From the IMG/VR virus record IMGVR_UViG_3300021960_000019: a DNA stretch of 64,000 nucleotides; one strand, written 5' to 3'. The stretch's first letter is position 1; the number at the start of each line of letters is the position of its first letter. Positions 1 through 64,000 of the stretch are shown here, piece after piece. Made by a program: the position numbers and the translations under genes. The stretch is from a virus. The notes beneath the pieces were generated by a model. That model was given only the letters and a program-made list of their open reading frames with translations, was not told where the DNA came from and did not search any database.

Positions 1-2
1 TA

Positions 3-3000
3 TATTATACCAGTGATGAGGGTGTAATATCTACTACGGTCGGTGGTGGTTCAAAACTTGGTACTGCTATCAACGCAACCTCACTTGCACTAGATTTTAC
101 CGATGAACTTGTGAGTGCAGATTTGGCAACATACGCAACAAAATCATATGTTGCATCACAAGTTCCAAGCCTTACTGGATATGCAACTGAGAATTATGTG
201 GATACAGAAATTGCAAACCTTGTAGATTCTGCTCCGGCAACTCTTGACACTCTCAATGAATTGGCAGCAGCATTAGGTGATGATGCAAACTTCAGCACAA
301 CAATCACCAACCAAATCGCGGCAAAGGCCGATGCATATAGTACTGTATCAGTAACAACTTCTAGTGGAAAATTCTATATTGATGGTGAACAACAATCAAT
401 AGCAACTTTACAGCCAGGAAGAACTTATCGTTTCGATCAGTCAGCTGCATCAAATAACTCACACCCACTTAGATTTTCTGAAGTCGAGGATGGAACACAT
501 GCTGGTGGCGGTGCAACAGAATACACAACAGGTGTAACTGTCAATGGTACTGCTGGTAATGCAGGTGCATATGTTGAGATTGCGGTTACGAATGCTACTC
601 CAAGGTTGTATTATTACTGTGCGAATCACACAGGCATGGGCGGCAAAGTCAGTGTTGGTAAAGAATTGTTTGTTGAACGTATCACATCAGATACGTGGAT
701 AACGGGTCCTATCCAAACTACTTCAGTGAATGTGGGTACTGGTGGACAAATCAATGCGGCACTTGCGACATTGGACTTTACTAATACTACGGTAAATTTT
801 AGTGGTGCAACTATAGCTGGACTTTCAAATTCAGATGTTGGTTTGGCAAATATTGCAGATAATGCTCAGGGAGTGGTTGTTACTGGTAAGGTTGCTGCTG
901 GCAGTTTAGACTTAGGTACTGGTGGTTCTATCAACGCGCAACTTGGAACATTAGACTTTACTCATACTACAGTAAATTTTAGTGGTGCAAACGTAGGTGG
1001 ACTTGGCGATACCATTCAAGATGAAGTAGATTTTCATCTGAATAAAGATAATTCTGCTGGACAGACTATCATATCGGATGGACAAGTACTAAGTTGGAAT
1101 GCCACAGGTGGATTGCAAGGTACAGGTGATTACGAGTGGGTTGCGAGTGCTACTGGTGGGAGTGTAGAAATTAGTGCAACTGCACCATCAAGTCCAAGTC
1201 ACGGAGATATGTGGTTTGATTCTACAAACCTATTAATGTACATATATTATAATGATGGAACATCTTCTCAGTGGGTTCAATCAGGTGGTTCATCTGGTGC
1301 AAATGCAGAAATTACCAATTCAGAAAATCCGCCTAGCGCGCCGGCCGAAGGTGAATTATGGTTTGATACATCAAACTTAATATTGTATGTATATTATAAT
1401 GATGGAACATCTTCTCAGTGGGTTCAAACTAGTGGATTTTCGTCAACTTCTGGTTTAGATGTTTCTGATTTAACAGATACAACAAATCTTCTCTTTGATG
1501 GTCAATATTCAAGTCTTACTGGGGCTCCCACATCATCTACTGCTGGTGCATTAGGTACACTTACAAAAACATTTACACAGAATGAAGAAGCCGAAATAAC
1601 ACTCTCAGAGACTATCTCTCCAGTGCCAAATGTAAGTGTGTTCAAAGAAGTGCCGCAAGGTGGATTGACATCCAAAGGAAATTGGGATGTTAACGCAAAC
1701 GCAACCAATTATGAGTTTTTTGATGAGAAACCAATTTCTTACACTAGTACAACATTAACACCAAGTGCGACAGGCGATGGTACTTTTACGAGTAGTAATC
1801 CTACAGTAGTTGGTTATGATATATCAGGAATATCAAGTGTAGGAGACTATGAAACAGCCACACCAGTGTCACAAGTACCTAGTCCACCTCCAAATGGATA
1901 TACACTTGCAGATTTTGTTATAAGTCCAGATGGCACAAAGATTATAATTGTGTCAGCACAACGTATGCACGAATTTACAATGAGTACTGCATATGACATA
2001 ACTAGTGCATCTTGGACGCAAAGATATGATTATGATGCATATAACCCTTCTACTTGGGGGGGATATGGATTTTTTGAATTAGGAGATAGTGGTAGTAAAT
2101 TATACATGGCGGATTGGTCAAATCATAAAATTGACCAATTCACATTATCAACACCATATTCTCTTGGAAACGGCGCTTCAGATGTTTCGTTCTCTGGCCA
2201 AGTAACTGGTATGAATAACAGTGGATCGAACCAAACACAAAATGGTATGTATGTAAAAGATAGTACTACTGTCTTTATAATGAAAGACGATGTTAGTGGC
2301 AACCAGGCTATAATCGAAGAATGGATTATGTCAACCGCTTGGGATATCACCACACTCAGTTATAACAATAAAACTAAAAGTATAACGGGGCAACGTGGAA
2401 CTGATATGACCTTTTCGTCAGATGGTTTGACTATGTTTATATCAGATGTGTTTGGTAGTGGAACTCTGAAATATTTTAGTCTAGGTACAGCGTGGGATAT
2501 TAGCACAATTAATACTACAGGAACTACATTTACAAACCCTGCATTAACAAATTCAACACCTCAGGCTATTAACTTTTCCAAGAGTGGTACTAAATTATAT
2601 ATGGCAGATGGAACTAAAATATATGAACAAGATACTGGTTATGGTGAAGTATTTTCATCTACAGATGTAGGTAAGAGAGTTGTAGGTAACTCTGGATCTA
2701 CTATAATTACATCTACTGCTGGCGCATATAAGTCAGTAACAGCATTTGCAGACACTTCTGCAATTTCTTCTTGGCAACTATTTGGTACTGAAGGTAAGGC
2801 TGATGGATCTGGTATTGAATTAAGTGGTTTTCAGAATGGATATGATATTGCAAATGCGAGTTATGACAATGTAAGTTTTAGTCTACAAGCACAAGATTCG
2901 GCATCAGCACCACAGAATACATTTACTGGTCCAAAGTCACTAAGATTTAACAATGACGGCACAAAAATGTATTTTGTTGCCGGCAACTCATTAGATCATA

Positions 3001-5108: not shown

Positions 5109-5127
5109 AACAACAAACTTAAAAACA

Positions 5128-5135
5128 TATAAATA
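5128..5135 (+). promoter_or_regulatory. T4-type late promoter TATAAATA (gp13)
   Basis: Exact gp55 consensus in the intergenic gap. Confidence 0.85.
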
Positions 5136-5160
5136 GTCGTATAAACCAAGAGGTACGACT

Positions 5161-5907: not shown

Positions 5908-5911
5908 TATT

Positions 5912-7494: not shown

Positions 7495-7946
7495 TGGAGA
7501 ATGATATGAGTGATAAAGAAATAGATTCAAAATTAAATGAAGTTTTAGAAGTGAAAGATGATGATTATCATCCCATAGAAATTCAGTCTAATACAGAACT
7601 GGAATATATAGACACGTCAGAAGAAAGAAATCATGATATTAAGAATGATTACGAATTTCGTAGAGAAAAATTATATCAATTAGTTTCAAAAGGCGAAGAT
7701 GCATTAGAAAATCTTTTAGTACTTGCAAAAGAATCAGATCACCCAAGAGCATATGAAGTTTTTGGACAACTCATGAAAGCAAATATGGATGCTGTTAAGG
7801 ATTTAACGGATCTGCAAAAAGATATGAATAAAATAGAAAATGAAAAAGGTGGCAAAGGCCCGAATAAAGTTGTTAATAATAATTCAGTATTCGTAGGTAA
7901 TACCAATGAGTTGTTAGAGATGTTAAAGGGTAAAAATAGAGAATGA
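7494..7946 (+). CDS. gp16: Terminase small subunit gp16
   Basis: HPRAYEV and NNSVFVGNT motifs; directly upstream of gp17. Confidence 0.9.
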   Translation: MENDMSDKEIDSKLNEVLEVKDDDYHPIEIQSNTELEYIDTSEERNHDIKNDYEFRREKLYQLVSKGEDALENLLVLAKESDHPRAYEVFGQLMKANMDAVKDLTDLQKDMNKIENEKGGKGPNKVVNNNSVFVGNTNELLEMLKGKNRE

Positions 7947-9553: not shown

Positions 9554-9564
9554 ATCATATTTTT

Positions 9565-9572
9565 TATAAATA
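9565..9572 (+). promoter_or_regulatory. Late promoter TATAAATA (gp18)
   Basis: Exact consensus, intergenic. Confidence 0.85.
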
Positions 9573-21474: not shown

Positions 21475-22527
21475 ATGAAAGTCGCTTTGATTACAGACAC
21501 CCACTTTGGTGCTAGGGGTGATAGTATTTTATTTTATGATTATATGATGGAATTTTATAATAATGTATTTTTTCCAGAATTAGAAAAAAGAAATATAGAT
21601 ACAGTCATTCATCTTGGAGATGTTGTTGATAGACGTAAATTTATCAATTTTAATATCTTAACCAGAATGAAAAAAGAGTTTCTTGGAAGATTGCAAGAAA
21701 TGAATATAACTACCCATATGCTGGTAGGAAATCATGATACATATTTTAAAAATACAAATTCAGTCAATGCAATGAAAGAATTGATTGATGCATCACATCC
21801 TAATGCTCCTATCATATATGAAGAAGTAGAAAACATAAAGTTATCAGATGGTACTGATATTCTTATGTTGCCATGGATCAATTCAGAAAACTATAAATCA
21901 TCTCTTTCTGCAATCAAAAAAACTAAGTCTAAAATTTGTTTTGGACATTTAGAACTTGCAGGCTTTGAAATGATGAGGGGTCTTAAATGTGAAGATGGAA
22001 TGGACATGAAACATTTTGAAAAATTTGATTTGACATGCTCTGGTCACTTTCATACAAAATCTAATCAGGGAAACTTACATTATCTTGGTACTGCATATGA
22101 GTTATTTTGGAGTGATTTTAATGACAGAAAAGGATTTCATATTTGGGATACAAAAACCAATGAATTAGAACATATCATCAATCCATATAAAATGTTTAAT
22201 AAAATATGGTATGATGATAATACAAAAGTTACCGAAGATTTTTCGCATTTAAAAGACAAATATGTAAAGATAATAGTTAAAGAAAAAAGTAACGCATTTC
22301 ATTTTGAACAACTTGTAGATCAGATGTATCAAGTTGGAGTCGGAGACCTTGCAATTGTCGAAGATGAGATTGATATTGATTGGGAAGATACTACCGATGA
22401 AGATCATGCAGAAGATACAATCGCTCTTTTGTCAAAATATATTGATAATTATGAATTAGAGGTTGACAAAACTAAATTAAAGGTTATAATGCAAGAACTG
22501 TATTCTGATGCACTGAGGGGAGAATGA
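21475..22527 (+). CDS. gp47: Recombination nuclease gp47 (Mre11/SbcD-like)
   Basis: DTHFG, GDVVD, GNHD and GHFH metallophosphoesterase motifs. Confidence 0.95.
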   Translation: MKVALITDTHFGARGDSILFYDYMMEFYNNVFFPELEKRNIDTVIHLGDVVDRRKFINFNILTRMKKEFLGRLQEMNITTHMLVGNHDTYFKNTNSVNAMKELIDASHPNAPIIYEEVENIKLSDGTDILMLPWINSENYKSSLSAIKKTKSKICFGHLELAGFEMMRGLKCEDGMDMKHFEKFDLTCSGHFHTKSNQGNLHYLGTAYELFWSDFNDRKGFHIWDTKTNELEHIINPYKMFNKIWYDDNTKVTEDFSHLKDKYVKIIVKEKSNAFHFEQLVDQMYQVGVGDLAIVEDEIDIDWEDTTDEDHAEDTIALLSKYIDNYELEVDKTKLKVIMQELYSDALRGE

Positions 22528-22531
22528 TTCG

Positions 22532-23767
22532 TTGATGTATAGTTATGAGTCCTTTATGAAGGACTGTTTTGGTGAATATGATAAACCTACAATAGAACAG
22601 TTTAGAGATGAATCTAGGTTGATATACAATGCTGGAGAAGTTACGTTACGAGATTTTTCTAATAAGTTAGATGATAGTGATTATAGAAAACATTCTTTCG
22701 ATAACTGGTCAGAAATTCTACATCACGCATATATCACAAATTTTGAAAATATGATGAAGAAATGGTTTATTGCACATGCAGAATGTAATAATCCAGATAA
22801 GTTTCTTCGTTTCAATGTCGAGCCATCCAGATATAATATAGAAGATGGATTTATCATAGATGGACGAAAAGAAATCACAAGTGGTAGATTATTAAGAAAT
22901 ATATCATATAAAGGTATATACAAAGAAACAGGAAAAATTAATTCCAATGAAAAGGATACGATGTTAGGTGTCTTTGATAATATTATTAACAATAAATTTA
23001 GTGTGTCTGCTTTACTTACACCGAAAGTCTCTGACTTCCTCTCGTCAGGAAATTATGATAGTCTTTTTGCAATGCTTCGCGGCACCGCTAATCGTGCTTC
23101 TGTTTTTAATCCATACACTTATTCGTGGATATTAAAAAATGTATTTCCAGATGGTAAAAAACTTTTATCTCCAGTGATGAGTTGGTGTACTCCAGTGATT
23201 GGTGTTGCAAATTCTAATTATGATGAATTAGTTGCAATTGATGTAATTCCAGATGTTGTGAATAAGGCTAAAGAACTACACACTTATAGTGAAAATATGA
23301 GAAATACCTTTTTTGGTGATGATTCAAAATCTGGTACTTTCTTTTGTTGTCCATCAGAAAAACTTGATGAGAGGTACAAATTTAGTGAAACATATAAAGA
23401 ATATTTTGATTTGGTGTTTTTTTCGCCCCCATATTATAATTTGGAAGTTTATACTGGAGGAGAACAATCCCACGAATCATGGCAAACCTACGAAGAATGG
23501 TTAGATGGATACTGGCGTCCTACAGTAGAATTATGTCATCGTTGTCTTAAAGATGGTGCGACTTTTAGTTTTGTAATTGTTGAAGATTATTCAGAGTTGA
23601 ATAAAAAACGCATTCCTATTAGTGCTGATATGAAAAGAATTGCATCAGAATATTTTACTTATGATAAACTGATACATATTTCGTGGGGGGGTTTTAGTGC
23701 AGCCAAAAATTCTAATGAAAAAAGAAAAAACTTGTTAGAAAATGTACACATACTAAAAAAGGTATAA
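22532..23767 (+). CDS. Putative amino-DNA methyltransferase with atypical SAM-binding motif
   Basis: DLVFFSPPYYNLEVY catalytic motif; motif I region reads LLSPVMSWC; C-terminal half parallels the 26457 protein. Confidence 0.7.
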   Translation: MMYSYESFMKDCFGEYDKPTIEQFRDESRLIYNAGEVTLRDFSNKLDDSDYRKHSFDNWSEILHHAYITNFENMMKKWFIAHAECNNPDKFLRFNVEPSRYNIEDGFIIDGRKEITSGRLLRNISYKGIYKETGKINSNEKDTMLGVFDNIINNKFSVSALLTPKVSDFLSSGNYDSLFAMLRGTANRASVFNPYTYSWILKNVFPDGKKLLSPVMSWCTPVIGVANSNYDELVAIDVIPDVVNKAKELHTYSENMRNTFFGDDSKSGTFFCCPSEKLDERYKFSETYKEYFDLVFFSPPYYNLEVYTGGEQSHESWQTYEEWLDGYWRPTVELCHRCLKDGATFSFVIVEDYSELNKKRIPISADMKRIASEYFTYDKLIHISWGGFSAAKNSNEKRKNLLENVHILKKV

Positions 23768-23768
23768 T

Positions 23769-25496
23769 ATGATTGAATTTCAAACAATTAGATGGAAGAA
23801 TTTTCTATCTACAGGAAACAACTTTACTTCAGTAGATTTAAATAGATCACCAACTACGTTAATTCTTGGAACGAATGGTGCAGGAAAATCAACTATTCTA
23901 GATGCATTGACATTTGGACTTTTTGGTAGGCCTTTTAGAAAAATTAATAAACCACAATTGGTAAATTCGGTAAATGAAAAAGATTGTTTAATTGAAATAG
24001 AGTTTAAAATTGGTAGTAAGACATATAAAGTAAAACGTGGTATAAAACCCAATGTATTCGAAATTTGGAATACCTACAGTGGAGTTATGATTAATCAGGA
24101 CTCTAAGGCAAAAGATTATCAGAAATATCTAGAAGAAAATATATTAAAATTGAATTATAAATCATTTACTCAAACAGTAATTTTGGGTAGTGCAACATTC
24201 GTGCCGTTTATGCAACTAAGTGCAGCTGACCGTAGAGATATTATTGAAGATTTATTAGATATTAAAATCTTTACGACAATGAATGATATGTTGAAAATAA
24301 AACAGATTGAACTTAAAGATGAACTATTTGAGAATGATAAGAATAGAGAATTAACTGATCAGAAAATAGATATGCAAGAAAGATATATTGAATCTGCTGA
24401 CGCAAATAAACAAAAGGCTGTTCAAGAACATAAGGGAAAAATTGCATTAAAGACTATGGAAATCAATAGTCATATATCTGATGTAGAGGTATTTGGAAAA
24501 CAGGTAGAAGATTTAAATGAAAGTATAAGTGATTTTTCTAAAATTAAAAAGAAACAATCTAAACTGGACAATATTGAAAGTCAGTTAATGTCTAGTTCTA
24601 AAAAACACACTAAAGACATTAAGTGGTTTGAAAGTATAGATTCTTGTCCAACTTGTAAACAGTCTGTCACAGAAAATCATAAAAAGAATATGATTAGTGA
24701 TAAGAAGGAAAAAGTTGGTGAAATTGAAAATGCAATCACTGCACTATCTGCAGAGTTTAAGTCTGTTAATCTCCGCATGAATAAAATTACATCTATACAA
24801 GAAAATATATCTAATATAAATTCACAAATCGCAGAAAAGAATACAGTTGTTAGAATGTTACAAAAACAAGTTTCAGAACTAACAAATGAAATAGGTGTTA
24901 TGGAAAATGACGATTCCGCATCGGTCACTAAGTTGAATAAAGAATTAAAAGACTTAAAGAAAACATTAAGTGAACACAATAAGATTAGAGAAGAACTTTT
25001 AACAAAAAGAGAATATTATACAGTATCTTCTGTTTTGTTAAAAGATACTGGTGTAAAAACATCTATCATCAAGTATTATTTACCAAAGATGAATAAATTG
25101 ATTAATAAATATTTACAAGAGATGGATTTTTATGTCAACTTTACTATGGATGAAAAATTTAGTGAAAACATAAAATCTAGAGGTAGAGAAAACTTTTCTT
25201 ATGCATCATTTTCTGAAGGTGAAAAGATGCGTATTGATCTTGCACTACTCTTTACTTGGAGAGCAATTGCAAAGATGAAAAATAGTGTTAACACTAATTT
25301 ATTAATCCTCGACGAAGTATTTGATAGTAGTTTAGATAATTCTGGTACAGATGAGTTTCTTAAACTATTAAATACATTAGGTGGTAATAATGTTTTTGTT
25401 ATTAGTCATAAAGGCGAAATACTTTATGATAAATTCCGTAGTGTGATTAAGTTTGATAAGGTTAAAAACTTTAGCCAGATTGTTGAGGAAAAATGA
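23769..25496 (+). CDS. gp46: Recombination ATPase gp46 (Rad50/SbcC-like)
   Basis: GTNGAGKST, CPTC hook, FSEGEKMR and LILDEVFD. Confidence 0.96.
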   Translation: MIEFQTIRWKNFLSTGNNFTSVDLNRSPTTLILGTNGAGKSTILDALTFGLFGRPFRKINKPQLVNSVNEKDCLIEIEFKIGSKTYKVKRGIKPNVFEIWNTYSGVMINQDSKAKDYQKYLEENILKLNYKSFTQTVILGSATFVPFMQLSAADRRDIIEDLLDIKIFTTMNDMLKIKQIELKDELFENDKNRELTDQKIDMQERYIESADANKQKAVQEHKGKIALKTMEINSHISDVEVFGKQVEDLNESISDFSKIKKKQSKLDNIESQLMSSSKKHTKDIKWFESIDSCPTCKQSVTENHKKNMISDKKEKVGEIENAITALSAEFKSVNLRMNKITSIQENISNINSQIAEKNTVVRMLQKQVSELTNEIGVMENDDSASVTKLNKELKDLKKTLSEHNKIREELLTKREYYTVSSVLLKDTGVKTSIIKYYLPKMNKLINKYLQEMDFYVNFTMDEKFSENIKSRGRENFSYASFSEGEKMRIDLALLFTWRAIAKMKNSVNTNLLILDEVFDSSLDNSGTDEFLKLLNTLGGNNVFVISHKGEILYDKFRSVIKFDKVKNFSQIVEEK

Positions 25497-26140
25497 ACAG
25501 TTTGATGTGTAAAGACTATAGAGAAGTAATCGAGGATTATTCATATGATTACATTTTTACTAGTCCGCCAGATTTTGAGGAAATTGGGTCTGATCCAGGC
25601 AAGCCCGAAGATTACCAAGATTTCCTTATTGAAGTTTTTTCGAAAGCGACACCGAAAAAAGGATTAATTACTGTTGCATTTACAGACAGAAAATACAAAG
25701 GAACTATTGTACCAAAATCATCCATCTTAAAACATTCTATGATGGCAATTGGATATAAATTGCAAACACATAAAATATGGGTTAAATCAACTAAGGTAGA
25801 TTTGTTTAGATTGACATACGGTAATGTACTTACATTCGGTAAAGGTAAAACAAAACAGAATTTAGAAAAAGAATTTAAACCAGATGTGTGGATGGACGGT
25901 ACAGATAAATATAAGAAATTTGCATATGGAATGCCCGTAAATGTACCCAGAAGATGCATTCTTAATTATACTGCAGAAAATGATGTAGTATATGACCCAT
26001 TTATGGGTAGTGGTACAACTGCTGTTGCAGCACATAGGACAAATAGACAATATATTGGTTCTGAGTTGAGTTCGGAATTTCACCAACTATCAATTGAAAG
26101 AATTAATGAAGAAGGAACAAGAATGGATCAATTTCTATGA
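25493..26140 (+). CDS. N4C/N6A DNA methyltransferase, beta-class motif order
   Basis: FTSPPD near the N-terminus and VYDPFMGSGTT near the C-terminus. Confidence 0.8.
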   Translation: MNSLMCKDYREVIEDYSYDYIFTSPPDFEEIGSDPGKPEDYQDFLIEVFSKATPKKGLITVAFTDRKYKGTIVPKSSILKHSMMAIGYKLQTHKIWVKSTKVDLFRLTYGNVLTFGKGKTKQNLEKEFKPDVWMDGTDKYKKFAYGMPVNVPRRCILNYTAENDVVYDPFMGSGTTAVAAHRTNRQYIGSELSSEFHQLSIERINEEGTRMDQFL

Positions 26141-26460
26141 CTTTAACAGGTGCATCCCAAAACATGCCATTTAATGTAGATATGGCATTGAAAGCTCAAC
26201 AATATGGGCATCCAAACGTTTATCCGAATTCTGAATACATAAAACCACCATTAGAAAAGAAAAAACTGAGAGTGGTTGACCCTGCAACTAGAACTGAAAT
26301 CAGTATTCAGAGATTTAAAGATATGCAAGAAAGAGTCGATGAACTGAGAGAAACATTACAGACTAATAAAAATGGCTTGACATATGATCGGGTTTCTGGT
26401 AATATAGAGGTTAAATCAGAAAAGATAGATCAAGGTCAAGTTGTGGATATTAGTGTATGA
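26137..26460 (+). CDS. Hypothetical protein
   Basis: Start and stop overlap both neighbours (ATGA coupling). Confidence 0.6.
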   Translation: MTLTGASQNMPFNVDMALKAQQYGHPNVYPNSEYIKPPLEKKKLRVVDPATRTEISIQRFKDMQERVDELRETLQTNKNGLTYDRVSGNIEVKSEKIDQGQVVDISV

Positions 26461-30178: not shown

Positions 30179-31327
30179 ATGAAAAACTTAGAAGCCCGTA
30201 AGCAGTTCTGTGAACTTGCAATGGATACTTATGGTACTGATACTTTGTCACGTACTCAAATCAACAATCTCGCTAAGGTACATCAGTTGCCCGACCCTGC
30301 ATGGTTGAAGTCTGATAAGTATCGTGTTGCTCGCGGTAAATATCAGATGCCTTCTGATGAAACAACTAACATATCAGCCCCAGTGACAACGGCGCCTTCT
30401 AACAATGTAGTTAACATGCAAGTTGATTTGTCTTATACTGAAAACTTGGTTCCTGCAAAAGACCCCAGTTTTGTAAAGTTTGGTAATTTTGAAGATCTCA
30501 AAACTATCATTTCATCTAACATGTTTTATCCAGTTTTTATTACTGGTTTGTCTGGTAACGGCAAAACATTCGGTACGCAACAAGCTTGTGCTCAGTTGAA
30601 ACGTGAATGTATTGTAGTACCTATTACTGTTGAAACTGATGAGTCGGACCTTCTAGGTGACAAAACTCTGATTGATGGTAATGTTTCTTTTGTGCCCGGA
30701 CCTGTTATCCGCGCAATGGAACGTGGTGCAGTTTTGGTATTGGATGAAGTCGATCTTGCATCCAACAAAATTATGTGTTTGCAATCGATTGTTGATGGTA
30801 AAGGTGTTTACCTCAAGAAAGATAATCGGTTTGTTGAACCTGCGCCTGGATTTACTATTGTCGCAACTGCAAATACAAAAGGTAAAGGTTCTGACGATGG
30901 ACGTTTTGTAGGTACTAACGTTATGAACGAAGCGTTTCTGGAACGTTTCAAGATTACTTTCGAACAAGAATATCCTAATCAAACTGTCGAGAAAAAAATC
31001 TTGACTAAAGTATTGGATACTTTCGGAATGGAAGATGATTCATTCATTATGAACCTGACCGTATGGGCACAAACTATTCGGAAAACTTTCGAAGATGGTG
31101 GTATTGATGATGTTATCTCTACTCGCCGTTTGGTTCATATCATTGAAACATATGCGATTTTTAAAGACCGTGTAAAGTCAATTGAATTGTGTACTAATCG
31201 TTTTGATGATGATACAAAATCATCTTTCGTAGACCTTTATCAGAAAATTTCTGATGATGGTGTATCAACAGAAGAAGTTACTGGTGTTGACCTAGACAAA
31301 GCCGATGGTGAAGAAATCCCATTTTAA
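30179..31327 (+). CDS. CobS/MoxR-like AAA+ ATPase
   Basis: GLSGNGKT, LVLDEVD, ATANTKGKG and NEAFLERF. ATG at 30179 has an AAGGA RBS (track start 30143). Confidence 0.9.
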   Translation: MKNLEARKQFCELAMDTYGTDTLSRTQINNLAKVHQLPDPAWLKSDKYRVARGKYQMPSDETTNISAPVTTAPSNNVVNMQVDLSYTENLVPAKDPSFVKFGNFEDLKTIISSNMFYPVFITGLSGNGKTFGTQQACAQLKRECIVVPITVETDESDLLGDKTLIDGNVSFVPGPVIRAMERGAVLVLDEVDLASNKIMCLQSIVDGKGVYLKKDNRFVEPAPGFTIVATANTKGKGSDDGRFVGTNVMNEAFLERFKITFEQEYPNQTVEKKILTKVLDTFGMEDDSFIMNLTVWAQTIRKTFEDGGIDDVISTRRLVHIIETYAIFKDRVKSIELCTNRFDDDTKSSFVDLYQKISDDGVSTEEVTGVDLDKADGEEIPF

Positions 31328-35600: not shown

Positions 35601-35653
35601 ATATTATAAGGTGGGGGGAAACCCCCACCAAACAACATGTAAAGGTGATAGTA

Positions 35654-36798: not shown

Positions 36799-39336
36799 AT
36801 GCGTTTTTATACAAATGTACAATGTGTCGGTAATAAAATATTCCTCAGAGAATACGACAATGGAAAGCGTAGGGAAGTAAAACTAGATTACTCTCCTACT
36901 CTTTTTGTATCTGGTGGTAGTGGTAAATCCAAATATAAAACTTTGCATGGAGAAAGTGTTGAGCCTATTAGACATGGTTCAATACGTGATGCAAGAGAAT
37001 TTATCAAAAAGTATGACGATATAGAAAATATGAAAATCTATGGTCATACACAATTCATCTATCCATTTATTGGTGATGAGTATCCAAGTGAAATTCAGTA
37101 TGATGAATCAAAGATAAACATTTGCAATATCGATATCGAAGTTGAGTGCGAAAATGGTTTTCCAGAACCAACTCTTGCAAACGAAATTGTTAACGCAATC
37201 ACAATGAAAATGAAAGATCAATATATTGTTCTTGGATTGGGTGATTGGGAAAACAAAAGTCCAGAAACACAACATCTTAAAATTAAATACTATAAGTTTA
37301 CTGATGAACTTGCACTCTTGCGTAGTTTTTTGGAAATTTGGACACATGCAAAAATCGATATTGTTACTGGTTGGAATGTGAACCAGTTTGATATGACGTA
37401 TCTTGTCAATCGTATTGGTAAAACTCTTGGTGATGATGAAGTCAAAAGATTGTCCACATGGGGGATTGTCAGGAAAATAGAAAAGAATATTCGTGGTCAG
37501 ATGCAGACACAAGTACAGATCAGTGGATTATCTATTATTGATTATCTTGATTTGTACAAAAAGTTTACATATGTAACTAGAGAAACGTATCGATTAGATC
37601 ATATTGCATATGTCGAGTTGGGTCGGAAAAAACTTGACCACTCTGAATTTGCAAATATGCATTTATTCTATAAACAAGATTATCAAAAGTTTATTGATTA
37701 TAACATTATCGACGTTGAGTTGGTCGATAAACTTGAAGATAAACTTAAACTAATGGAATTACTTATTACCATTGCATATCAGTCTAAAGTAAATTATGAC
37801 GAAGTATTCTCACCTATTAAGGTGTGGGATTCCATTGCATTTCATGAATTGCGTAGAAGTAAAACTGTAATTCCGCCTCGTAATAATAATACTAAATCGG
37901 AAGCTTATGAGGGTGCATATGTAAAAGACCCAACTGTTGGTAAACATGAATGGGTTATGTCATTTGATTTAAACAGTTTGTATCCACACTTAATTATGCA
38001 GTATAATATTTCACCAGAAACATTGTATGACAAAGAAAGAGTCAACACATCTGTTGAGAAACTATTGAATCAAGAAACGGATTTATCTAGTTTGCAGCGC
38101 AGTAATATGACTGTGTGTCCAAGTGGGGTTCTTTTCAATAAAGATAAACGTGGGTTTCTGCCCAAGTTGATGCAAAGTATGTATGATGATCGTACTACAT
38201 ATAAGAAGTTGATGTTAAAGACCAAACAAGATAAGATTGATGGTAAGGGCGACCCTGTTGAATTGGACAAGAAGATTGCTCAGTTAAACAACAAACAAAT
38301 GGCCGCAAAGATTTTGTTAAACTCTGCTTATGGTGCTTTGGGAAATCAGTACTTTAGATACTTTGATATCAGACAGGCAGAATCTATCACTTTGTCTGGA
38401 CAACTTTCAATTCGATGGATCGAAGAGAAAGTAAATATATACATGAATAAAATTTTAAAAAACGATGAGGATAAAAATTATGTCATTGCAAGCGATACGG
38501 ATTCAATTTACGTTGCTCTTGGTGACTTGGTTGACAAGTTTGTTAAAATCAAGGAAGGTGAGTCAAAATCAGAAGAAACACGAAGGAAAGTTGACTTTCT
38601 TGATAAGGTTGCCCAAGAGAAGTTTGAACCATATATCGATAAGTGTTATCAAGATCTTGCTACGTATGTAAATGCATACGACCAGAAGATGCAGATGGCC
38701 AGAGAGGTTATTGCCGATAGTGGTATCTGGACTGCAAAGAAAAGATACATTCTCAATGTTTGGGATAACGAAGGTGTTAGATATAAATCACCAGAACTTA
38801 AAATCATGGGTTTGGAGGCAGTTCGTTCATCAACACCAGAATCTTGTAGAAATATGATTAAGAAATCACTTGAACTTATTCTGCGTAGTAACAACGATAG
38901 TTTGATTGAATTTATTGAACAGTTTAGACAAGATTTCAAAACATATGAAGTTGATGATGTTGCATTTCCTAGAAGTGTAAATGGACTTACTAAATATCAT
39001 GACCCCGTTCTCACATACAAAAAAGGTACACCAATTCATGTAAAGGGTGTATTATTCTACAACCAACTAGTCAAAAAACATAAACTAGAAATGCAGTATC
39101 CGCCTATAAAAGACGGTGAAAAAATTAAGTTTTGTTATCTAAAAGAACCAAACCCATTGCAAAATAATACTATTGCAATTGCGGCCGGTACATTACCCAA
39201 AGAATTTGAGTTGGATAAGTTTCTTGATTATGATACACAATTTGAAAAGGCATATCTCGAACCAATTAAAACTATTGCGGAAACAATTGGTTGGGAAATA
39301 GAAAAGAAAATAACATTAGACAGTTTTTTTAATTAG
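36799..39336 (+). CDS. gp43: Family B DNA polymerase gp43
   Basis: Exonuclease DIEVE, SFDLNSLYP, KILLNSAYGALG and DTDS; C-terminal TLDSFFN clamp peptide. Confidence 0.98.
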   Translation: MRFYTNVQCVGNKIFLREYDNGKRREVKLDYSPTLFVSGGSGKSKYKTLHGESVEPIRHGSIRDAREFIKKYDDIENMKIYGHTQFIYPFIGDEYPSEIQYDESKINICNIDIEVECENGFPEPTLANEIVNAITMKMKDQYIVLGLGDWENKSPETQHLKIKYYKFTDELALLRSFLEIWTHAKIDIVTGWNVNQFDMTYLVNRIGKTLGDDEVKRLSTWGIVRKIEKNIRGQMQTQVQISGLSIIDYLDLYKKFTYVTRETYRLDHIAYVELGRKKLDHSEFANMHLFYKQDYQKFIDYNIIDVELVDKLEDKLKLMELLITIAYQSKVNYDEVFSPIKVWDSIAFHELRRSKTVIPPRNNNTKSEAYEGAYVKDPTVGKHEWVMSFDLNSLYPHLIMQYNISPETLYDKERVNTSVEKLLNQETDLSSLQRSNMTVCPSGVLFNKDKRGFLPKLMQSMYDDRTTYKKLMLKTKQDKIDGKGDPVELDKKIAQLNNKQMAAKILLNSAYGALGNQYFRYFDIRQAESITLSGQLSIRWIEEKVNIYMNKILKNDEDKNYVIASDTDSIYVALGDLVDKFVKIKEGESKSEETRRKVDFLDKVAQEKFEPYIDKCYQDLATYVNAYDQKMQMAREVIADSGIWTAKKRYILNVWDNEGVRYKSPELKIMGLEAVRSSTPESCRNMIKKSLELILRSNNDSLIEFIEQFRQDFKTYEVDDVAFPRSVNGLTKYHDPVLTYKKGTPIHVKGVLFYNQLVKKHKLEMQYPPIKDGEKIKFCYLKEPNPLQNNTIAIAAGTLPKEFELDKFLDYDTQFEKAYLEPIKTIAETIGWEIEKKITLDSFFN

Positions 39337-47712: not shown

Positions 47713-48141
47713 ATGACAAACGAATACAAATATGAAGATGTAGATTTTGGATTTACTGCAGTAGATGAAGATGAATTACGTAGTCTCTCTGGTGGTGATG
47801 AATCTGTAGAAAAAGTAACACAAGTCGCAGAGGCGACTAGTGCAGAACTACGTGGACTTGACGGCAAACTCTCAGAATTAATTGAAATGCAAAGAGATGT
47901 TATGTCTGAATTAATTGCATCTAAAAGTTTGTATGAAGAAAAGAGTAGTGGACTTGATATTTCTAAGGAAGTATTAGAAGATAAGTTATTAAAGTTGGAA
48001 AGACTTATTATGCCATTATTGCAAAACCTATTAAAGAATAAAGATAAAGAATATATTTTCTGGCCGAATAGAGAACCTATCATCAAAGCGCAAATGGAAA
48101 AAGTCTTAGAAATTACGAGGGATAACGATGGCGAAGGATAA
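47713..48141 (+). CDS. Hypothetical coiled-coil protein
   Basis: DFGFTAVDEDEL and PLLQNLLKNKDKEYIFWPNR; likely start 47713, after ACTAAATA. Confidence 0.65.
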   Translation: MTNEYKYEDVDFGFTAVDEDELRSLSGGDESVEKVTQVAEATSAELRGLDGKLSELIEMQRDVMSELIASKSLYEEKSSGLDISKEVLEDKLLKLERLIMPLLQNLLKNKDKEYIFWPNREPIIKAQMEKVLEITRDNDGEG

Positions 48142-50338
48142 AATTGTTTTTACGTTTGGTAGATTTAATCCTCCAACTACTGGACACGAAAAGTTAATTG
48201 AAAAGGTTGCTGCAGTCGCTAAAAAAGAGGCCGCAGATTTTATGGTCTTTCCAAGTCATTCTCAAAATCCAAAAAAAGATCCTCTTGATTTTAAGACCAA
48301 AGTCAGATTTATGAAAAAGATGTTTCCAAAATATTCAAGAAATATCATTTCAAATAATAAAGCAAAAACTGCAATTAATGTTGCAACAATTTTATATGAA
48401 ATGGGATATAAAGAATGTGCAATGGTTGTCGGTGGAGATAGAGTTACAGAGTTTAAAACTTTATTAAACAAGTATAATGGTGTTGAAGGCAGACACGGAC
48501 TTTATGATTTTAAGGGTGGTATTAAGATATATTCCGCAGGGGAAAGAGACCCAGATGCAGAAGGTGTTACTGGTATGTCTGCATCTAAGATGAGAGCTGC
48601 TGCAGCTGCAGATGATTATGATAGTTTTAAAAACGGTTTACCATCAAAGTTTGAAAGGACTGATGGTAAAAAATTATACACTGCGATCAGAAAGGCAATG
48701 AAAGTTGAAAATACCGAATTTGGATTGTGGTTGGGTGATGCAGAATTATTCTCAGAATTTATGAATTCTGGTTTCATTGATACTATAGGAGAGTCATCTA
48801 ATGATGAGGTCTTTGATATGATTTATGAAAAGGTATCTCAAAAACAAGTTGGAGATTTAGAGAAGTTTGCAGATAAATTACTTGCAAAATTTAACATTGA
48901 TGTTACATTTACGAAACACTTTGCAGATAGAATGAATGATTCTAGAAACTCTCCAGATATTAAAATTGCAGAGTTGCAAAAATTATTTAAAAAGATACAA
49001 AAAAATAAAGGTAAGAATATCTTATCAAATCCTGATATAGAGGCTGTACTAAAAGATATCTCAACTGACTTAAATTTGCCTGTAGTTATCAACTACAATA
49101 ATGGTGAATTTGAATTGGTTACAAAAACTATTATGAGAAAGAAAAATTTTAGTACTTCTAGTAAAGTTATGAAATATGAAGAAAACGAAATGAAAGATTT
49201 TTCTAGTTTTATATCAGAAAGAAAAACTGCCCAAGACCCAGATGTAAAAGACAAAGAAGGCACTCAACCTAAAAAGTATTATGCAAAAGATGCTGATGGT
49301 GATGATATGTCTAAGGGTACGAAAGAAAAGCGTGCAGCACATTTCAAGAAACAGGCAGACAAACCAGATGGTGATGATAAGTCATATAAACCAGCGCCAG
49401 GTGATGCAAATGCAAAAACTAAACCATCTAAACATACGAAAAAATATAAAGATATGTTTGGTGAGCAGATTGACGGACTAAGAAAAAAGGCAGATAAGTC
49501 TGGTATGCCATACAGTATACTTAAAAAGGTATATGATAGAGGTATGGCTGCATGGAAATCTGGACATAGGCCAGGCACTACTCCACAACAATGGGCATTT
49601 GCAAGAGTCAATTCTTTTGTTACGAAATCATCTGGTACATGGGGTGGTGCAGATAAAGATCTTGCTGCAAAAGTAAAAAAAGAAAGTGTTGAAGAAGATA
49701 GAGATTATAAAAAAGAACGTGAAAACTATCATGGCACTCCAGAACAGATGGAAAAAAATCGTGCCAGAAAACGTGCAAGATATGCAATGGAAAAGGCCGG
49801 TAAAGCAAAACGTGGTGATGGTAAAGATGTACATCACAAAGACAATAATCCATTAAACAATGATCCAAAAAATCTATCATTAGTAACTCAACACTATAAT
49901 AGAAAAGAACCTAGAATGAGAGAAGAACTTTCGCTAGATAAAATAGATGAAATTACTAGTAAAAGACGAATGCAACTGATAAACAAAATCAAAAAATCTG
50001 GTGTTGTCAAAAAAGGTTCTATGTCAAAAGATACCAAAGATAAAAAAGAAAATAATGGCCCATGCTGGCCTGGCTATAAACAAGTCGGTATGAAAATGAA
50101 AAATGGAAAAGAAGTACCAAATTGTGTACCAGAGGAAACAGTGCATGAATCATTGTCTGGTGCAGAAAATCCACCAAAATTACCAAAGGCCGGTGGTGGA
50201 GAGTTTGGTACTAAAACTTTAAGAGACACTTATTTGAAAGATACTCCTTTTATGGAATTAGTTATGACGCCGAATGAATTAAAAAATTATCGCAATATAA
50301 TTGATATTATAAATATAGAGAAAACCAAGGGAAATTGA
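48128..50338 (+). CDS. Multidomain protein: HIGH-type nucleotidyltransferase, several small modules and an HNH module
   Basis: FGRFNPPTTGH, VGGDR and MSASKMR; RGMAAWKSGHRPG..QQWAFARVNSF module; DVHHKDNNPLNN..NL..N HNH; CWPGY..PNCV. Confidence 0.8.
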   Translation: MAKDKIVFTFGRFNPPTTGHEKLIEKVAAVAKKEAADFMVFPSHSQNPKKDPLDFKTKVRFMKKMFPKYSRNIISNNKAKTAINVATILYEMGYKECAMVVGGDRVTEFKTLLNKYNGVEGRHGLYDFKGGIKIYSAGERDPDAEGVTGMSASKMRAAAAADDYDSFKNGLPSKFERTDGKKLYTAIRKAMKVENTEFGLWLGDAELFSEFMNSGFIDTIGESSNDEVFDMIYEKVSQKQVGDLEKFADKLLAKFNIDVTFTKHFADRMNDSRNSPDIKIAELQKLFKKIQKNKGKNILSNPDIEAVLKDISTDLNLPVVINYNNGEFELVTKTIMRKKNFSTSSKVMKYEENEMKDFSSFISERKTAQDPDVKDKEGTQPKKYYAKDADGDDMSKGTKEKRAAHFKKQADKPDGDDKSYKPAPGDANAKTKPSKHTKKYKDMFGEQIDGLRKKADKSGMPYSILKKVYDRGMAAWKSGHRPGTTPQQWAFARVNSFVTKSSGTWGGADKDLAAKVKKESVEEDRDYKKERENYHGTPEQMEKNRARKRARYAMEKAGKAKRGDGKDVHHKDNNPLNNDPKNLSLVTQHYNRKEPRMREELSLDKIDEITSKRRMQLINKIKKSGVVKKGSMSKDTKDKKENNGPCWPGYKQVGMKMKNGKEVPNCVPEETVHESLSGAENPPKLPKAGGGEFGTKTLRDTYLKDTPFMELVMTPNELKNYRNIIDIINIEKTKGN
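50308..50315 (+). promoter_or_regulatory. Late promoter TATAAATA
   Basis: Exact consensus about 25 nt upstream of the 50340 ATG. Confidence 0.75.
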
Positions 50339-56833: not shown

Positions 56834-56860
56834 TCAATAGAACTAAAGGATAAAATATAG

Positions 56861-57484: not shown

Positions 57485-57489
57485 AATAA

Positions 57490-60231: not shown

Positions 60232-60310
60232 GGCAAAAAACAATAAGATGACGTATTCATACACAATTTTTTTATTAAATATATAATAAGAACTAAAGGA
60301 ATTTCTATAA

Positions 60311-62785
60311 ATGGCAATTAATTTTCCAGATAGTCCAACAAATGGCCAGGTGGCAACGGTAGGTGGCAAGAATTACACATACAATTCTACGAAGAATACT
60401 TGGACTCCGACACAGGTAACGGAAGCAGACTTATCTACTGTAGGATCTACAACAGTAGTTGCCACGCATGATTTATTGCCATCATCCCCAAGTGCCGGTG
60501 ACATGGCATTAGTATCTAGTGTTAATAAGATGTATGTTTATTTTTTAAGTGGGTGGTGGTTAATGTCATCACTACAAAATGCATCTCCTAGTGGTATCAC
60601 TGGAAATGCAGCAATATATGACTTGGCTGCGGATGGTACTCCAACAACAGTCACACTAAGTTCTTCTGACCCAGAAGGATTTCCAATTGTTTGGTCACAT
60701 AGCGTCATCTCAGGTTCGCTTGGGGGTACAACAGTAACTAATGTTAATAATGTATTTACTATTACACCAAGCACAGACGCTGCAGACGCTGGTACTTTTA
60801 CTTTAAGGTTTGCCGCATCTGATGGTCAAGGTGGTGAGTCTGGTTCACAATCTCAGTTTACATTAGATTTTGTATTTATAGTTGCAAATAGTAGATATAC
60901 TACTCTGTTAGCGACAGCAACTGGTACGTCAGACAACAACAACATTACTGATACATCTTCGAATAATCATAGCATTACCGTAAATGGCGATGCCTACGCT
61001 GGTACGTTCAGCCCTTACAGAAGTAGAGGTTATTCTACTTATTTTGAAGATACTGCTGCTAATGTATTATACGCATCTCCTTCAAGTGATTTTGCGTTTG
61101 GTACTGGTGCATTTACAATTTCGGTTTGGGTGAAATTATTACATCAATATCTCGGAACTATATTTGATACCAATGATGGTATTAATCCTGGCGTCATGAT
61201 GTCAGTAAATAATATTACTTTTTATACCTATTCAAATACTTGGTTAAGTAGTACGTCAACCTCAAGTCAAGATGTTTGGCAACATTTCTGTTGGACTCGT
61301 GATGGATCAGGTAATAATAAAGTATTCGTTAATGGTACACAAGCTACAACTTTTACAGATAGTACTAATTACACTTCACAAAATTTCAAAATGGGCGAGG
61401 AACAAAACGGTACTAGTGACTTAAAGGCTTATATAAAAGACTTACATATAGTAAAAGGTTATGCATATGAACCAGATTCAACGTATGCCGATGGTGCTGC
61501 CGAACCTACAACTGGAACTGTGTTTTTGGGTTGCGGATTACCTTATCATGGAGATAAAAGTTCTTCTCCTAAAACACTTACAATAGCAAATTCTGGTATA
61601 TCTATAGTTAATGATACACCACACGACTACATAGAATACTCAGTAACTGATCACGGTGGGTCCATAGTGATAAACAGCACAAGTGCTTGGGTGCAGTCTA
61701 CAGTAACAGCTCCATCGTCTGGAAGTTTTGCGGTTGAATGTTGGGTGTATTGGGATGAATTTCCAAACACTTCTAATGGCAACAACCAGTCTATAATTTC
61801 CTTCAAAGGTTCAGACAATTATGACGGCGTAAGGCTGATGTACCAAAACCCCTCAGCTGGCGGATTTGCTGTTTATGCAAACGACTCTTGGTTTATGACA
61901 CCATCAAGCAATAAGGCGCTACAGGTAAAAACTTGGTATCATGCAGCTATTACTTATGATGGTACAAATCTACGATTATTTGTGAACGGATCTTTACAAA
62001 ATACTGAAGCATTTAGTACTAATCTCACTAATGCCGATCTTCGTATAGGTAATGATGGGTGGTGGCGCATGGGCCTTGGCAAAGTATCCGATGTTAGGTA
62101 CACCAGAGGATCTGCTGTTTACACTTCAAGCTTCACTCCACCAACTGCCCCTCTATCTTCAACTGGCACAGAACTACATATCAAAGGCACTGACGCTTCT
62201 ATTATAGATAAATCTCAAGGCGCTAACTTAAAGCTGGTAGGTAATACTACTGGATCAACTACTCAGGCTAAGTTTGCTAGTACTAAGTCAATGTATTTTG
62301 ATGCTTCTGGAGATTATATTTCTATTTCAGATGATGAAGCATATGGTTTTGGTACAGGTGATTGGACAATCGAGACTTGGCTGTATTGCACAAAAACTGG
62401 TGGGTTTAACGCAATATTTGACACACGAGTTGGTGCGGGTACTGAGACAGGTAGTTTTGGCCTTGGTATGTATAATACTGGACGAGTTCAAATGTTCTCA
62501 GGTGGGATATTTTACTACCCAACCGACACTTTAAGTTTTAATACTTGGCAACATTTGGCTATAGTTAAAAACTCTGGAACAACTACAATGTACTTTAACG
62601 GTACAGCCGCAAGTTCAACGTATTCAGACTCTAGAAATTATGGATCAAGTCAACCTGTTCAGATTGGCAAGGATGATACAACTTCAAATTACTTTGGGGG
62701 GTATATGCAAGACTTCCGTATCACTAAAGGTTTAGCAAGATACACCGCAAACTTTACACCACCAACTGCTTCATTAGAAGGATAA
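60311..62785 (+). CDS. Fibre-type protein with LamG/concanavalin-A-like domains
   Basis: MAINFPDSP N-terminus; repeated FGTG.(F/W)TI..W, W.H.A, and RITKGLARYTANFTPP. Confidence 0.8.
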   Translation: MAINFPDSPTNGQVATVGGKNYTYNSTKNTWTPTQVTEADLSTVGSTTVVATHDLLPSSPSAGDMALVSSVNKMYVYFLSGWWLMSSLQNASPSGITGNAAIYDLAADGTPTTVTLSSSDPEGFPIVWSHSVISGSLGGTTVTNVNNVFTITPSTDAADAGTFTLRFAASDGQGGESGSQSQFTLDFVFIVANSRYTTLLATATGTSDNNNITDTSSNNHSITVNGDAYAGTFSPYRSRGYSTYFEDTAANVLYASPSSDFAFGTGAFTISVWVKLLHQYLGTIFDTNDGINPGVMMSVNNITFYTYSNTWLSSTSTSSQDVWQHFCWTRDGSGNNKVFVNGTQATTFTDSTNYTSQNFKMGEEQNGTSDLKAYIKDLHIVKGYAYEPDSTYADGAAEPTTGTVFLGCGLPYHGDKSSSPKTLTIANSGISIVNDTPHDYIEYSVTDHGGSIVINSTSAWVQSTVTAPSSGSFAVECWVYWDEFPNTSNGNNQSIISFKGSDNYDGVRLMYQNPSAGGFAVYANDSWFMTPSSNKALQVKTWYHAAITYDGTNLRLFVNGSLQNTEAFSTNLTNADLRIGNDGWWRMGLGKVSDVRYTRGSAVYTSSFTPPTAPLSSTGTELHIKGTDASIIDKSQGANLKLVGNTTGSTTQAKFASTKSMYFDASGDYISISDDEAYGFGTGDWTIETWLYCTKTGGFNAIFDTRVGAGTETGSFGLGMYNTGRVQMFSGGIFYYPTDTLSFNTWQHLAIVKNSGTTTMYFNGTAASSTYSDSRNYGSSQPVQIGKDDTTSNYFGGYMQDFRITKGLARYTANFTPPTASLEG

Positions 62786-62792
62786 TATAAAG

Positions 62793-64000
62793 ATGGCAAT
62801 TAATTTTCCAGATAGTCCAAGTGATGGGGATACTCACGAAGGATATGCGTATAATGCTACGACAGGTACGTGGGAAATCACTGTTGCGCCTATTAATGGT
62901 CCTATTACTGGTCATGTATTACCAGATACAACATTAACATACGATTTAGGTTCTGCAGATAAGAAATTTAGAGATATCTATCTATCATCTGGTACAATTT
63001 ATCTTGGAGATGAAAATTTATCAATTACAGATGGTCAACTTACAAGTTCTGCATCTATTGCTTCACCAGATTTAGATGTATCACTAATTCCAGAAAATAT
63101 GGAATTGGTTGTGAATGCAAACGAAGGTGGCCATGGAATGAATTGGTTTTGGACTTGGGGAGAAACTTTGTTATATGGTAGAGGTTCAGTTACAAATTCA
63201 AGTTCAGAAACGGAAGTACCACTCTATAGAGAAGGAACATATACCTTTGTAAACTTTGCATATACACAATATGGAGATATGACACAGACACATGCCGGTT
63301 ATTTAAAATCAGTTTTAGGAGCGGGTACAGATAATATAATTCCAGGCGTAACAAGCACTACAGAAGATCGTTTTAATTCGGTGGCTGGCGGAAACACACA
63401 GGTGCAGAAACATGTATGGACTATTCCATCCGATTTTTCAGCATCTGATATCACCTTAGTTGCGCCATCTATTTCTATGAATGTTTCTACAAATTCTGGT
63501 GCATATGATATAGATATTGTCCATGGTACAGATATTGAAGCAGTTTATCGTGGCGGAACTTATACGTTTAATTTAAATGTTACAGGACATCCATTTTATT
63601 TAACAACAGATGATGGCACAAACTGGACACAAGGTGGTTATGTTGGAGAATATACAAACGGTGTCTCTGGGTCTAGAACAGAAGTCGGCACTCTCACGTT
63701 TACAGTTCCCAATGATGCTCCTGATACACTATATTATCAGTGTGCAAATCATAGCGGAATGAAAGGTACAATTCATGTAAAAGATTTAGAAGTTGATGTG
63801 TTGGGTGACGCAGACAATTCTATTAGGATTTACTTTCAACACACACAATTTGGACATAAGACATCGTTTTTGATCAAAGACAAGCCAGTAATACCAACTA
63901 CTGCATGTTTAATGTATGATGGAACAAAATTTGTACCAACTCATATGAATGACTATCTTAATTCTCATGCAGAAGTTGAAACAAAAATAGGACAAATTGC
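62793..64000 (+). CDS. Fibre-type protein, 3'-truncated, with cupredoxin-like motif (not in the ORF track)
   Basis: Manual translation: MAINFPDSPSDG..VLPDTTLTYDLGSADKKFRDIY..GHPFYL..LYYQCANHSGMKG; no stop seen before the window end. Confidence 0.8.
   Translation, partial: MAINFPDSPSDGDTHEGYAYNATTGTWEITVAPINGPITGHVLPDTTLTYDLGSADKKFRDIYLSSGTIYLGDENLSITDGQLTSSASIASPDLDVSLIPENMELVVNANEGGHGMNWFWTWGETLLYGRGSVTNSSSETEVPLYREGTYTFVNFAYTQYGDMTQTHAGYLKSVLGAGTDNIIPGVTSTTEDRFNSVAGGNTQVQKHVWTIPSDFSASDITLVAPSISMNVSTNSGAYDIDIVHGTDIEAVYRGGTYTFNLNVTGHPFYLTTDDGTNWTQGGYVGEYTNGVSGSRTEVGTLTFTVPNDAPDTLYYQCANHSGMKGTIHVKDLEVDVLGDADNSIRIYFQHTQFGHKTSFLIKDKPVIPTTACLMYDGTKFVPTHMNDYLNSHAEVETKIGQI

Follow-up and report, generated by a model that had tools for sequence, protein, structure and literature searches.

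A flank-dependent depletion of CCGG and CCNGG sites in an uncultured marine T4-like phage and a candidate methyltransferase for a proposed GCC mark

The phage and its gp46 locus

IMG/VR virus record IMGVR_UViG_3300021960_000019 supplies a 64-kb stretch of a T4-like myovirus, and the whole of that stretch, positions 1 to 64000, is what we call the window. Throughout it, the sites CCGG, CCWGG, and CCSGG (W is A or T, S is G or C) are found as GCC... or ...GGC, and GGCC is free or enriched. This footprint, and a small group of putative methyltransferase genes around gp46 that may have to do with it, are the subject here. The window is 35.1% G+C and 97% coding, with 61 open reading frames (ORFs) all on the + strand. 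The gene set is that of a T4-like myovirus: structural genes gp13 to gp23, UvsY and UvsW, gp55, gp47, gp46, CobS, gp45/44/62, RegA, gp43, UvsX, gp41, and tail fibers. A search of the cultured phages in INPHARED found no close relative of the window phage, and many marine metagenome assemblies contain the same species, in contigs up to 200-203 kb.

The gene order in the window and its relatives is gp55-gp47-(P2)-gp46-(slot)-peptidase-CobS-gp45. The landmarks bounding the variable modification slot are gp47 (21475 to 22527) and gp46 (23769 to 25496), which together span 21475 to 25496 on the + strand, as all of the genes named here are. Between them lies P2 (22532 to 23767), a 411-aa paralog of P3 at about 25% identity. 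Directly 3′ of gp46, the slot holds P1 (25493 to 26140), a 215-aa protein assigned by sequence to the beta-class N6/N4 DNA methyltransferases, then a 107-aa ORF (26137 to 26460) that is 96% conserved in locus L086 and found no match in family searches, and then P3 (26457 to 27788), a predicted class-I methyltransferase of 443 aa. P3 is our best candidate for the writer of the GCC mark proposed below.

The CCGG and CCNGG footprint

By exact count, 33 of the 34 CCGG sites in the window have a G at -1 or a C at +1, and the same is true for every CCWGG site (30/30) and every CCSGG site (5/5). The single unflanked CCGG, at 30696 to 30699, sits within GCCCGGA, where the overlapping CCCGG is itself G-flanked. 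The null for these counts is a within-gene synonymous-codon shuffle in 300 replicates, which preserves the proteins and the codon usage. Against it, unflanked CCGG is observed once with 29.1 ± 4.6 expected, unflanked CCWGG is at 0 versus 23.3 ± 3.4, and unflanked CCSGG is at 0 versus 6.4, with Poisson tails for the missing unflanked sites of about 7 × 10−12 and 8 × 10−11. The flanked sites are enriched, 37 observed versus 21.7 expected. With all cores pooled, double-flanked sites number 13 versus 3.6 expected, single-flanked 55 versus 35.8, and unflanked 1 versus about 56-59. An earlier note on this DNA, made by reading the letters, had described the CCWGG and CCGG sites as all G-preceded or C-followed with the sole exception at 30696, and both the exact counts and the codon shuffle bear that out.

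The Pro-Gly dipeptide is a special case, in that it is always encoded as CCNGG, so the site is irremovable and its rescue has to come through the flanks. All 29 of the Pro-Gly dipeptides comply with the rule, as had been claimed for these codon pairs, with glycine encoded by GGC in 19 (baseline 12.8%) and the preceding codon ending in G in 18 (baseline 12.6%). The flank rule applies equally to the two strands, in every reading frame, and at the one intergenic site. Among all palindromes of 4 to 6 bp, the flank-conditional pattern is limited to CCGG and CCNGG. AGCT (57 versus 130 expected) and GATC (129 versus 200) are depleted regardless of flank. GGCC and CGCG occur freely, as the earlier note had it, at 73 versus 48 and 30 versus 32 in the codon shuffle. 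Three 6-base palindromes built around GGCC are over-represented in the window, AGGCCT at 10 versus 2.5, GGGCCC at 8 versus 2.2, and CGGCCG at 5 versus 0.9.

The rule extends beyond the window. In about 100 kb more of the same species, the flanked and unflanked counts are 60/0 for CCWGG, 13/0 for CCSGG, and 80/7 for CCGG. Short words of restriction type are thus depleted against a protein- and codon-preserving null, which is restriction-site avoidance, and the window-wide flank-conditional depletion of CCGG and CCNGG is confirmed and very strong.

A number of other words are unevenly used. GGGAC and GTCCC are wholly absent from the window (0 versus 21 and 0 versus 9 expected), and GAAGAC and GTCTTC are depleted on both strands (3 versus 21 and 2 versus 8); the GGGAC and GAAGAC losses look like avoidance of type IIS sites, these being BsmFI- and BbsI-type words. 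At codon junctions, AGC (278 versus 563) and less strongly GCT (324 versus 414) are depleted even outside AGCT, and TGC is enriched, a pattern seen in the window, in G001, in G014 to G018, and in most relatives. Two further biases in the window belong to the coding strand: GCAGGT is at 2 versus 30 but ACCTGC at 6 versus 5.4, and CAGCAG, which is also the EcoP15I word, is at 10 versus 33 but CTGCTG at 25 versus 10. These strand biases are probably codon-pair or RNA-level effects.

GCGC, CGCG, and the shield motif

The earlier note had extended the flank rule to GCGC, and here the counts stand and the rule is not robust. The window has 13 unflanked GCGC sites, 11 of which overlap CGCG, leaving the 2 exceptions that had been named, at 38097 and 48088. 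The deficit is restricted to WGCGCW (2 versus 11.5 expected), with TGCGCA making up 3.4 of that expectation. TGCGCA is at 0 versus about 21.5 expected when summed over the window, G014, G016, G018, and G001. It is an FspI/AviII-type site, and it is retained in G015 (4 versus 5.1). Taking TGCGCA out, WGCGCW in the window comes to 2 versus 8.1 (uncorrected P of about 0.013). In clade Y, the sister clade, an apparent GCGC rule arises because CGCG and TGCGCA are wholly lost, AGCGCA and AGCGCT being at expectation. TGCGCA avoidance, the purging of CGCG in clade Y, and the small numbers in the window suffice to explain the pattern, and we reject the GCGC flank rule as independent evidence. With it falls the deduction, which had been argued from GCGC, that the middle base pair of GCC is the modified one; either C of GCC may carry the mark. 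The separate modification of CGCG that had been proposed is also rejected as unneeded: in the window, CGCG and CGCGC occur about as often as expected, and the sister clade has purged CGCG completely.

As for what the flanks supply, CCGG and CCNGG both begin with CC, so a 5′ G always yields GCC. The base before GCC is unconstrained, with T the commonest, and on that ground we reject RGCY as the motif. A general GpC shield is rejected for clade Y, where GCG does not shield: in G014 of that clade, CGCG preceded by G is at 0 versus 8.9 and CGWCG preceded by G at 0 versus 9.4, neither of them rescued. AGCT, purged everywhere in the window and its relatives, contains GCT on both strands, and its purging from the window favors GCC over GCY there. 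Elsewhere GCT seems, from the word counts, to shield 2 other sites, CTGCAG in G015 (flanked 4 versus 4.9 expected, unflanked 0 versus 7.9) and CTCGAG in G001 (flanked 4 versus 3.8, unflanked 0 versus 8.0).

Distribution among relatives

The relatives compared are about 300 IMG/VR loci around gp46, P1, P3, and UvsX, together with 5 long contigs. Among clade members with gp46 at 61-96% identity the CCWGG rule is universal, and several distant lineages follow it too; many others do not. CCGG varies independently of it across lineages, being flank-conditional, absent, or free. CGCG and GGWCC are purged in some lineages only, and the purged sets differ between related phages, as enzymes of different hosts would lead one to expect. 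Flanked and unflanked counts in G014, G016, and G018 are 45/0 for CCGG and 72/0 for CCWGG, and the 127-kb G001 has CCNGG at 89 flanked and 1 unflanked with CCGG free.

Genes were tallied against the footprint in 60 deduplicated IMG/VR clusters, of which those with at least 3 CCWGG sites were counted, taking as a candidate writer P3 at 55% identity or more, its paralog P2, or a C5-cytosine methyltransferase (C5-MT) at 70% or more. With a writer in the locus, 21 clusters have the footprint and 0 lack it; with no writer, 4 have it and 24 lack it (Fisher 4 × 10−10, uncorrected for phylogeny). Of the 4 writer-less footprint clusters, L073, L291, and L235 are loci that miss one or both of the known P3 positions, and L030 groups with P3-only phages in the UvsX tree.

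Of the candidate writers, P3 tracks the footprint best. At 57% identity or more, it goes with zero unflanked CCWGG in all of about 21 deduplicated clusters and across 5 genomic contexts. In the UvsX tree, P3 and the footprint occur together in 2 deeply separated groups, and the non-footprint lineages L302 and L314 nest beside the window. The non-footprint long contigs G003, G004, G005, G021, and G022 (74-115 kb) have neither P3 nor C5-MT. GGCC divides in the same way, at 353 versus 247 expected in the footprint clusters (1.4×) and 144 versus 311 in the others (0.46×), so that it is kept in the first and mostly purged in the second, as a mark on its internal GCC predicts. The P3 family is large: at least 571 IMG/VR stretches carry a member, and a library of 1.84 billion proteins includes 3,425 representatives.

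The slot after gp46 is filled either with a C5-MT (PF00145), a class-I methyltransferase, and an Asn-synthase-like gene, or with P1 with or without P3, so that P1 and the C5-MT alternate in the same place. Relatives with the C5-MT cluster show the same footprint without P3; the C5-MT is present in G001, G002, and G019. P1 adjoins P3 in 2 different genomic contexts. For P1 homologs at 41-47% identity, the footprint is seen only where P3 is the neighbor and not where the partner is a distant P3-like gene; P1 homologs at 37-53% standing alone have none.

Distant P3-like genes (23-31% identity) are often found in the gp46 slot of non-footprint phages, as in L116, L119 to L123, L031, L034, L035, and L051, and another of this non-footprint type is at G024:C28:62491-63318. 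Branches of the P3 family may have taken on different specificities, such as methylation of the whole CCWGG site. In L013, which has P1 and no P3, the slot (L013:12403-13527) also has DruA-like (PF14236), 424-aa unknown, and weakly GT1-like proteins, which may be another modification module.

The candidate methyltransferases

P3 has a motif I, LDTSMGWGDR, and a motif IV, SPPY, at residue 295. Its AlphaFold model, with a predicted local distance difference test (pLDDT) score of 94, has a class-I methyltransferase domain and an N-terminal domain of about 200 residues, and read on that model, motif I followed by SPPY is the order of the gamma-type amino-methyltransferases. The sequence matches PF01555 at 28.1 bits, marginally over the cut-off of 26.7, and 45 of the 51 family members match it weakly. 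A P3 sequence search found no match in the Protein Data Bank (PDB), nor was there a match in NCBIfam. By Foldseek and VIA-align the model matches only a generic class-I methyltransferase fold, for which the best neighbors of (N/D)PPY type are RNA N2-methylguanosine (m2G) enzymes at Z of about 14. Among cultured phages, the only tblastn matches to P3 are distant ones (24-31% identity), from phages of Vibrio, Bacteroides, and Staphylococcus. The candidate activity would probably be on the cytosine N4 position in DNA.

The C-terminus of P3 reads SLDSFFS, and the C-terminal peptide of gp43, encoded at 39313 to 39333 on the + strand, reads TLDSFFN, the two having the core LDSFF in common. The SLDSFF end is conserved in P3 homologs, as seen in the family consensus. 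In T4-type phages, the gp43 polymerase tail binds the gp45 clamp. The resemblance of the P3 tail to the clamp-binding gp43 tail points to action on replicating DNA, and suggests that P3 travels with the sliding clamp and marks nascent DNA.

P1 matches PF01555 at 88.4 bits and has an invariant and unusual motif IV, SPPDF, with FMGSGT as motif I. Its nearest solved chains are the DNA cytosine-N4 methyltransferase 8s9m/8s9n, DpnA, and CcrM, and on sequence it is a clear beta-class N6/N4 DNA methyltransferase. In P2 the SPPY motif is at residue 298, motif I is degenerate, and there is no PF01555 match.

Other writers were looked for as well. There is no PF00145 C5-MT among 59 of the 61 window ORFs, and tblastn with the C5-MT of relatives found no match in the window, in a further 100 kb or so from the species, or in 5 clade-Y/X contigs. 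The survey also covered about 97 kb of species sequence lying upstream of the window, a region with genes for the baseplate and tail, gp32, gp59, and PhoH and with a curli-like cluster. Over about 156-160 kb of the roughly 203-kb genome, Pfam tables and tblastn gave no DNA methyltransferase beyond P1, P2, and P3. Neither the window nor about 100 kb of additional sequence from the species yielded a TET gene. A TET/JBP partner had no match in 5 C5-MT-bearing relatives, but control genomes likewise gave none.

Interpretation

On balance we lean, with modest confidence, toward a phage-made cytosine mark at GCC that shields the sites it overlaps, with the copies it could not shield purged, and with P3 as the likeliest writer. 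The hosts of this lineage would cut at CCNGG, CCGG, and GGCC, which we take as restriction targets from the purges. The phage would mark one cytosine of the GCC triplet, probably as N4-methylcytosine (m4C), so that restriction sites overlapping GCC would carry the mark on one strand or both and would resist cleavage, and selection would have removed all of the copies that could not be covered. At sites forced by the protein, as with Pro-Gly, selection would have fixed a preceding G or a GGC glycine codon. GGCC always includes GCC, so it would need no purging. The writer would most likely be P3, perhaps together with the neighboring P1, tethered through its clamp-binding-like tail and marking nascent DNA, and sister lineages would gain the same shield from a C5-MT/CmoX-type cluster in the same slot. 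The earlier note had come to the same shield and purge, which stays the best reading, and had suggested an SPP(Y)-type methyltransferase as the agent; P3, the SPPY gene in the window, is the putative writer that tracks the footprint best.

A number of observations weigh against P3 and the shield as just described. P3 clears the Pfam DNA-methylase cut-off only marginally, and its modeled fold is as close to RNA m2G methyltransferases as to DNA enzymes. The test of association between genes and footprint ignores shared ancestry, and about 47 kb of the roughly 203-kb genome lies outside the survey for methyltransferases. In the L013 group the footprint accompanies P1 and P2 without P3, and in the L073 group it occurs with nothing in the slot, only 16% of that genome having been seen. 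The 118.7-kb G024:C28 has a P3 homolog at 53-58% identity and no CCWGG footprint, its unflanked CCWGG being at 76 versus 74.6 expected and its CCGG fully purged, including GCCGG; it is compatible with a P3-written GCC shield only if CCWGG is under no pressure there or the specificity differs. L208, a 4.7-kb contig, has an intact P3 together with 2 unflanked CCWGG and 2 unflanked CCGG sites. Since a footprint requires restriction pressure as well as a shield, G024:C28 and L208 are not fatal, but the link is not one-to-one. Finally, CCGG is absent altogether, even G-flanked, in several P3-bearing lineages, so there is no universal rescue of CCGG.

The strongest of the alternatives, though an unlikely one, keeps the shield and gives it another writer: P1, P2, or a cytosine-modifying gene, of C5-MT/CmoX type or other, in the unsurveyed part of the genome. 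Some footprint relatives carry C5-MT, CmoA-like, and Asn-synthase-like genes in the gp46 slot and no P3; P1 stands in exactly the C5-MT slot; P2 is present in the P3-less footprint lineages of the L013 group; and the unsurveyed 47 kb leaves room for a further gene. The negative C5-MT searches over the window, the additional species sequence, and the clade-Y/X contigs speak against a C5-MT, and against P1 there are the homologs noted above, which go with the footprint beside P3 and not beside a distant P3-like gene or alone.

A mark written by a host methyltransferase during infection, with the phage genes merely correlating with host range, seems to us improbable. The footprint is structured by lineage, and the differing purged sets suggest different hosts, as this explanation would have it. 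Every lineage would then need a host able to restrict CCNGG and to mark GCC as well, and the footprint follows P3 or C5-MT through deeply divergent phage groups and gene contexts; phage-encoded GC(C/T) or GC enzymes are moreover documented. Slightly less probable again is that there is no modification and the host nucleases intrinsically cut only sites without a preceding G or following C. Several type II enzymes are known to cut at rates that depend on the flanking bases, and a site that is not recognized looks the same in sequence data as one that is blocked. One rule would nevertheless have to serve 3 cores, CCGG, CCWGG, and CCSGG, and the greater enrichment of double- than single-flanked sites, the co-variation of GGCC tolerance with the footprint, and the tracking of methyltransferase genes all argue against it. 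Very improbable is that the pattern stems from mutation, translation, or codon-pair preference and not from selection on the DNA. The strong strand-specific codon-junction biases in AGC, GCAGGT, and CAGCAG would fit such an origin, but the rule is strand-symmetric in every reading frame and in an intergenic site, is missing from related phages of similar composition and codon use, and has CCGG and CCWGG changing independently between lineages.

Going back to the GCC mark with P3 as writer, a broader claim may be tentatively attached to it, one that we consider rather doubtful as it stands. P3-type proteins would be a very large family of replisome-tethered N4-cytosine methyltransferases with a 3-bp GCC specificity, whose sparse and mostly one-strand mark suffices against several classes of host restriction enzymes and, in marine myoviruses that are abundant and uncultured, has altered codon choice across the whole genome; C5-MT/CmoX clusters would be interchangeable alternatives in the same slot. 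If the GCC-mark reading is true, a genome sequence alone would reveal both a phage modification motif and the host restriction specificities that it defeats, and a testable specificity, GCC, would be given to a methyltransferase family with thousands of marine-virome members and no assigned function. A mark on a few percent of the cytosines would protect a whole genome once the uncovered sites were purged. There would be a hot-swappable modification slot 3′ of gp46 in marine T4-like phages, and a 3-bp m4C enzyme would be useful as a footprinting reagent.

Other features of the phage

At 48128 to 50338, the window encodes a 736-aa protein in which a cytidylyltransferase-like domain is fused to DUF5824 and an HNH_3 nuclease motif. 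A 62-aa protein encoded at 35645 to 35833 matches the chlamydial histone H1-like Hc1 family (PF07432, E = 8 × 10−12) and is conserved in relatives. Outside the window, in the same species, L346:3869-9939 has CsgF-, CsgG-, curlin-repeat-, and FecR-like genes along with a 680-aa CHASE2-guanylate/adenylate cyclase protein, an auxiliary cluster that is unusual. G024:C28 (NZEU01000035.1, 118.7 kb) sits in a metagenome-assembled genome labeled Porticoccaceae, and another contig of the group (156.7 kb) in one labeled Flavobacteriaceae; this could be mis-binning or a weak hint of the host.

Comparison with known systems

The window shares with ordinary restriction-site (palindrome) avoidance the depletion of type II-like targets, in sets that are lineage-specific (AGCT, GATC, GGWCC, CGCG, TGCGCA, GGGAC, and GAAGAC). 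Unlike in that process, the depletion depends on the flanking base, and the flanked copies are enriched. In chlorella viruses, M.CviPI (GC) and M.CviJI (RGCB) write short marks that protect many restriction sites by overlap. The overlap-blocking logic is the same as that proposed here; those enzymes are of the C5 type and from giant algal viruses, and the shield in the window, needing no purine before the G, is not RGCY.

Uncultured marine Myoviridae-like viral genomes examined by single-molecule real-time (SMRT) sequencing have mainly m4C, at short motifs that include RGCY, CCNGG, CCWGG, and GGWCC, and with unmatched methyltransferase genes (Hiraoka et al. 2022, PMC8919816). The main text of that report names no GCC motif and draws no link to P3-type genes or to site avoidance. 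A flank-conditional purge, and an N4-type SPPY candidate with a clamp tail, look new; a non-exhaustive literature search found neither.

A short shield is less of an oddity than the earlier note supposed in calling 3 bp unusual, since two phage systems precede it. The phage C5-methyltransferases from TET clusters in marine metaviromes are specific for GpC(C/T) (Burke et al. 2021, PMC8256090), a short cytosine mark made by marine phages much like the GCC shield proposed here. They differ in that our candidate is of the SPPY amino-methyltransferase class, with no PF00145 or TET gene found in the window and about 100 kb more, and in that PMC8256090 describes no genomic footprint such as the window phage has. 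The other is Synechococcus phage S-B43, where CmoA, CmoX, and CmoY make 5-carboxymethylcytosine and CmoX, a C5-MT homolog, acts at GC to give a product that blocks HhaI (PMC12783734). The window differs from S-B43 in having P1, the 107-aa ORF, and P3 in its slot, and the clade Y shield is not a general GC one. S-B43 is nevertheless also a T4-like marine phage, and relatives of the window phage share its architecture of C5-MT, CmoA-like, and Asn-synthase-like genes, with the footprint in addition.

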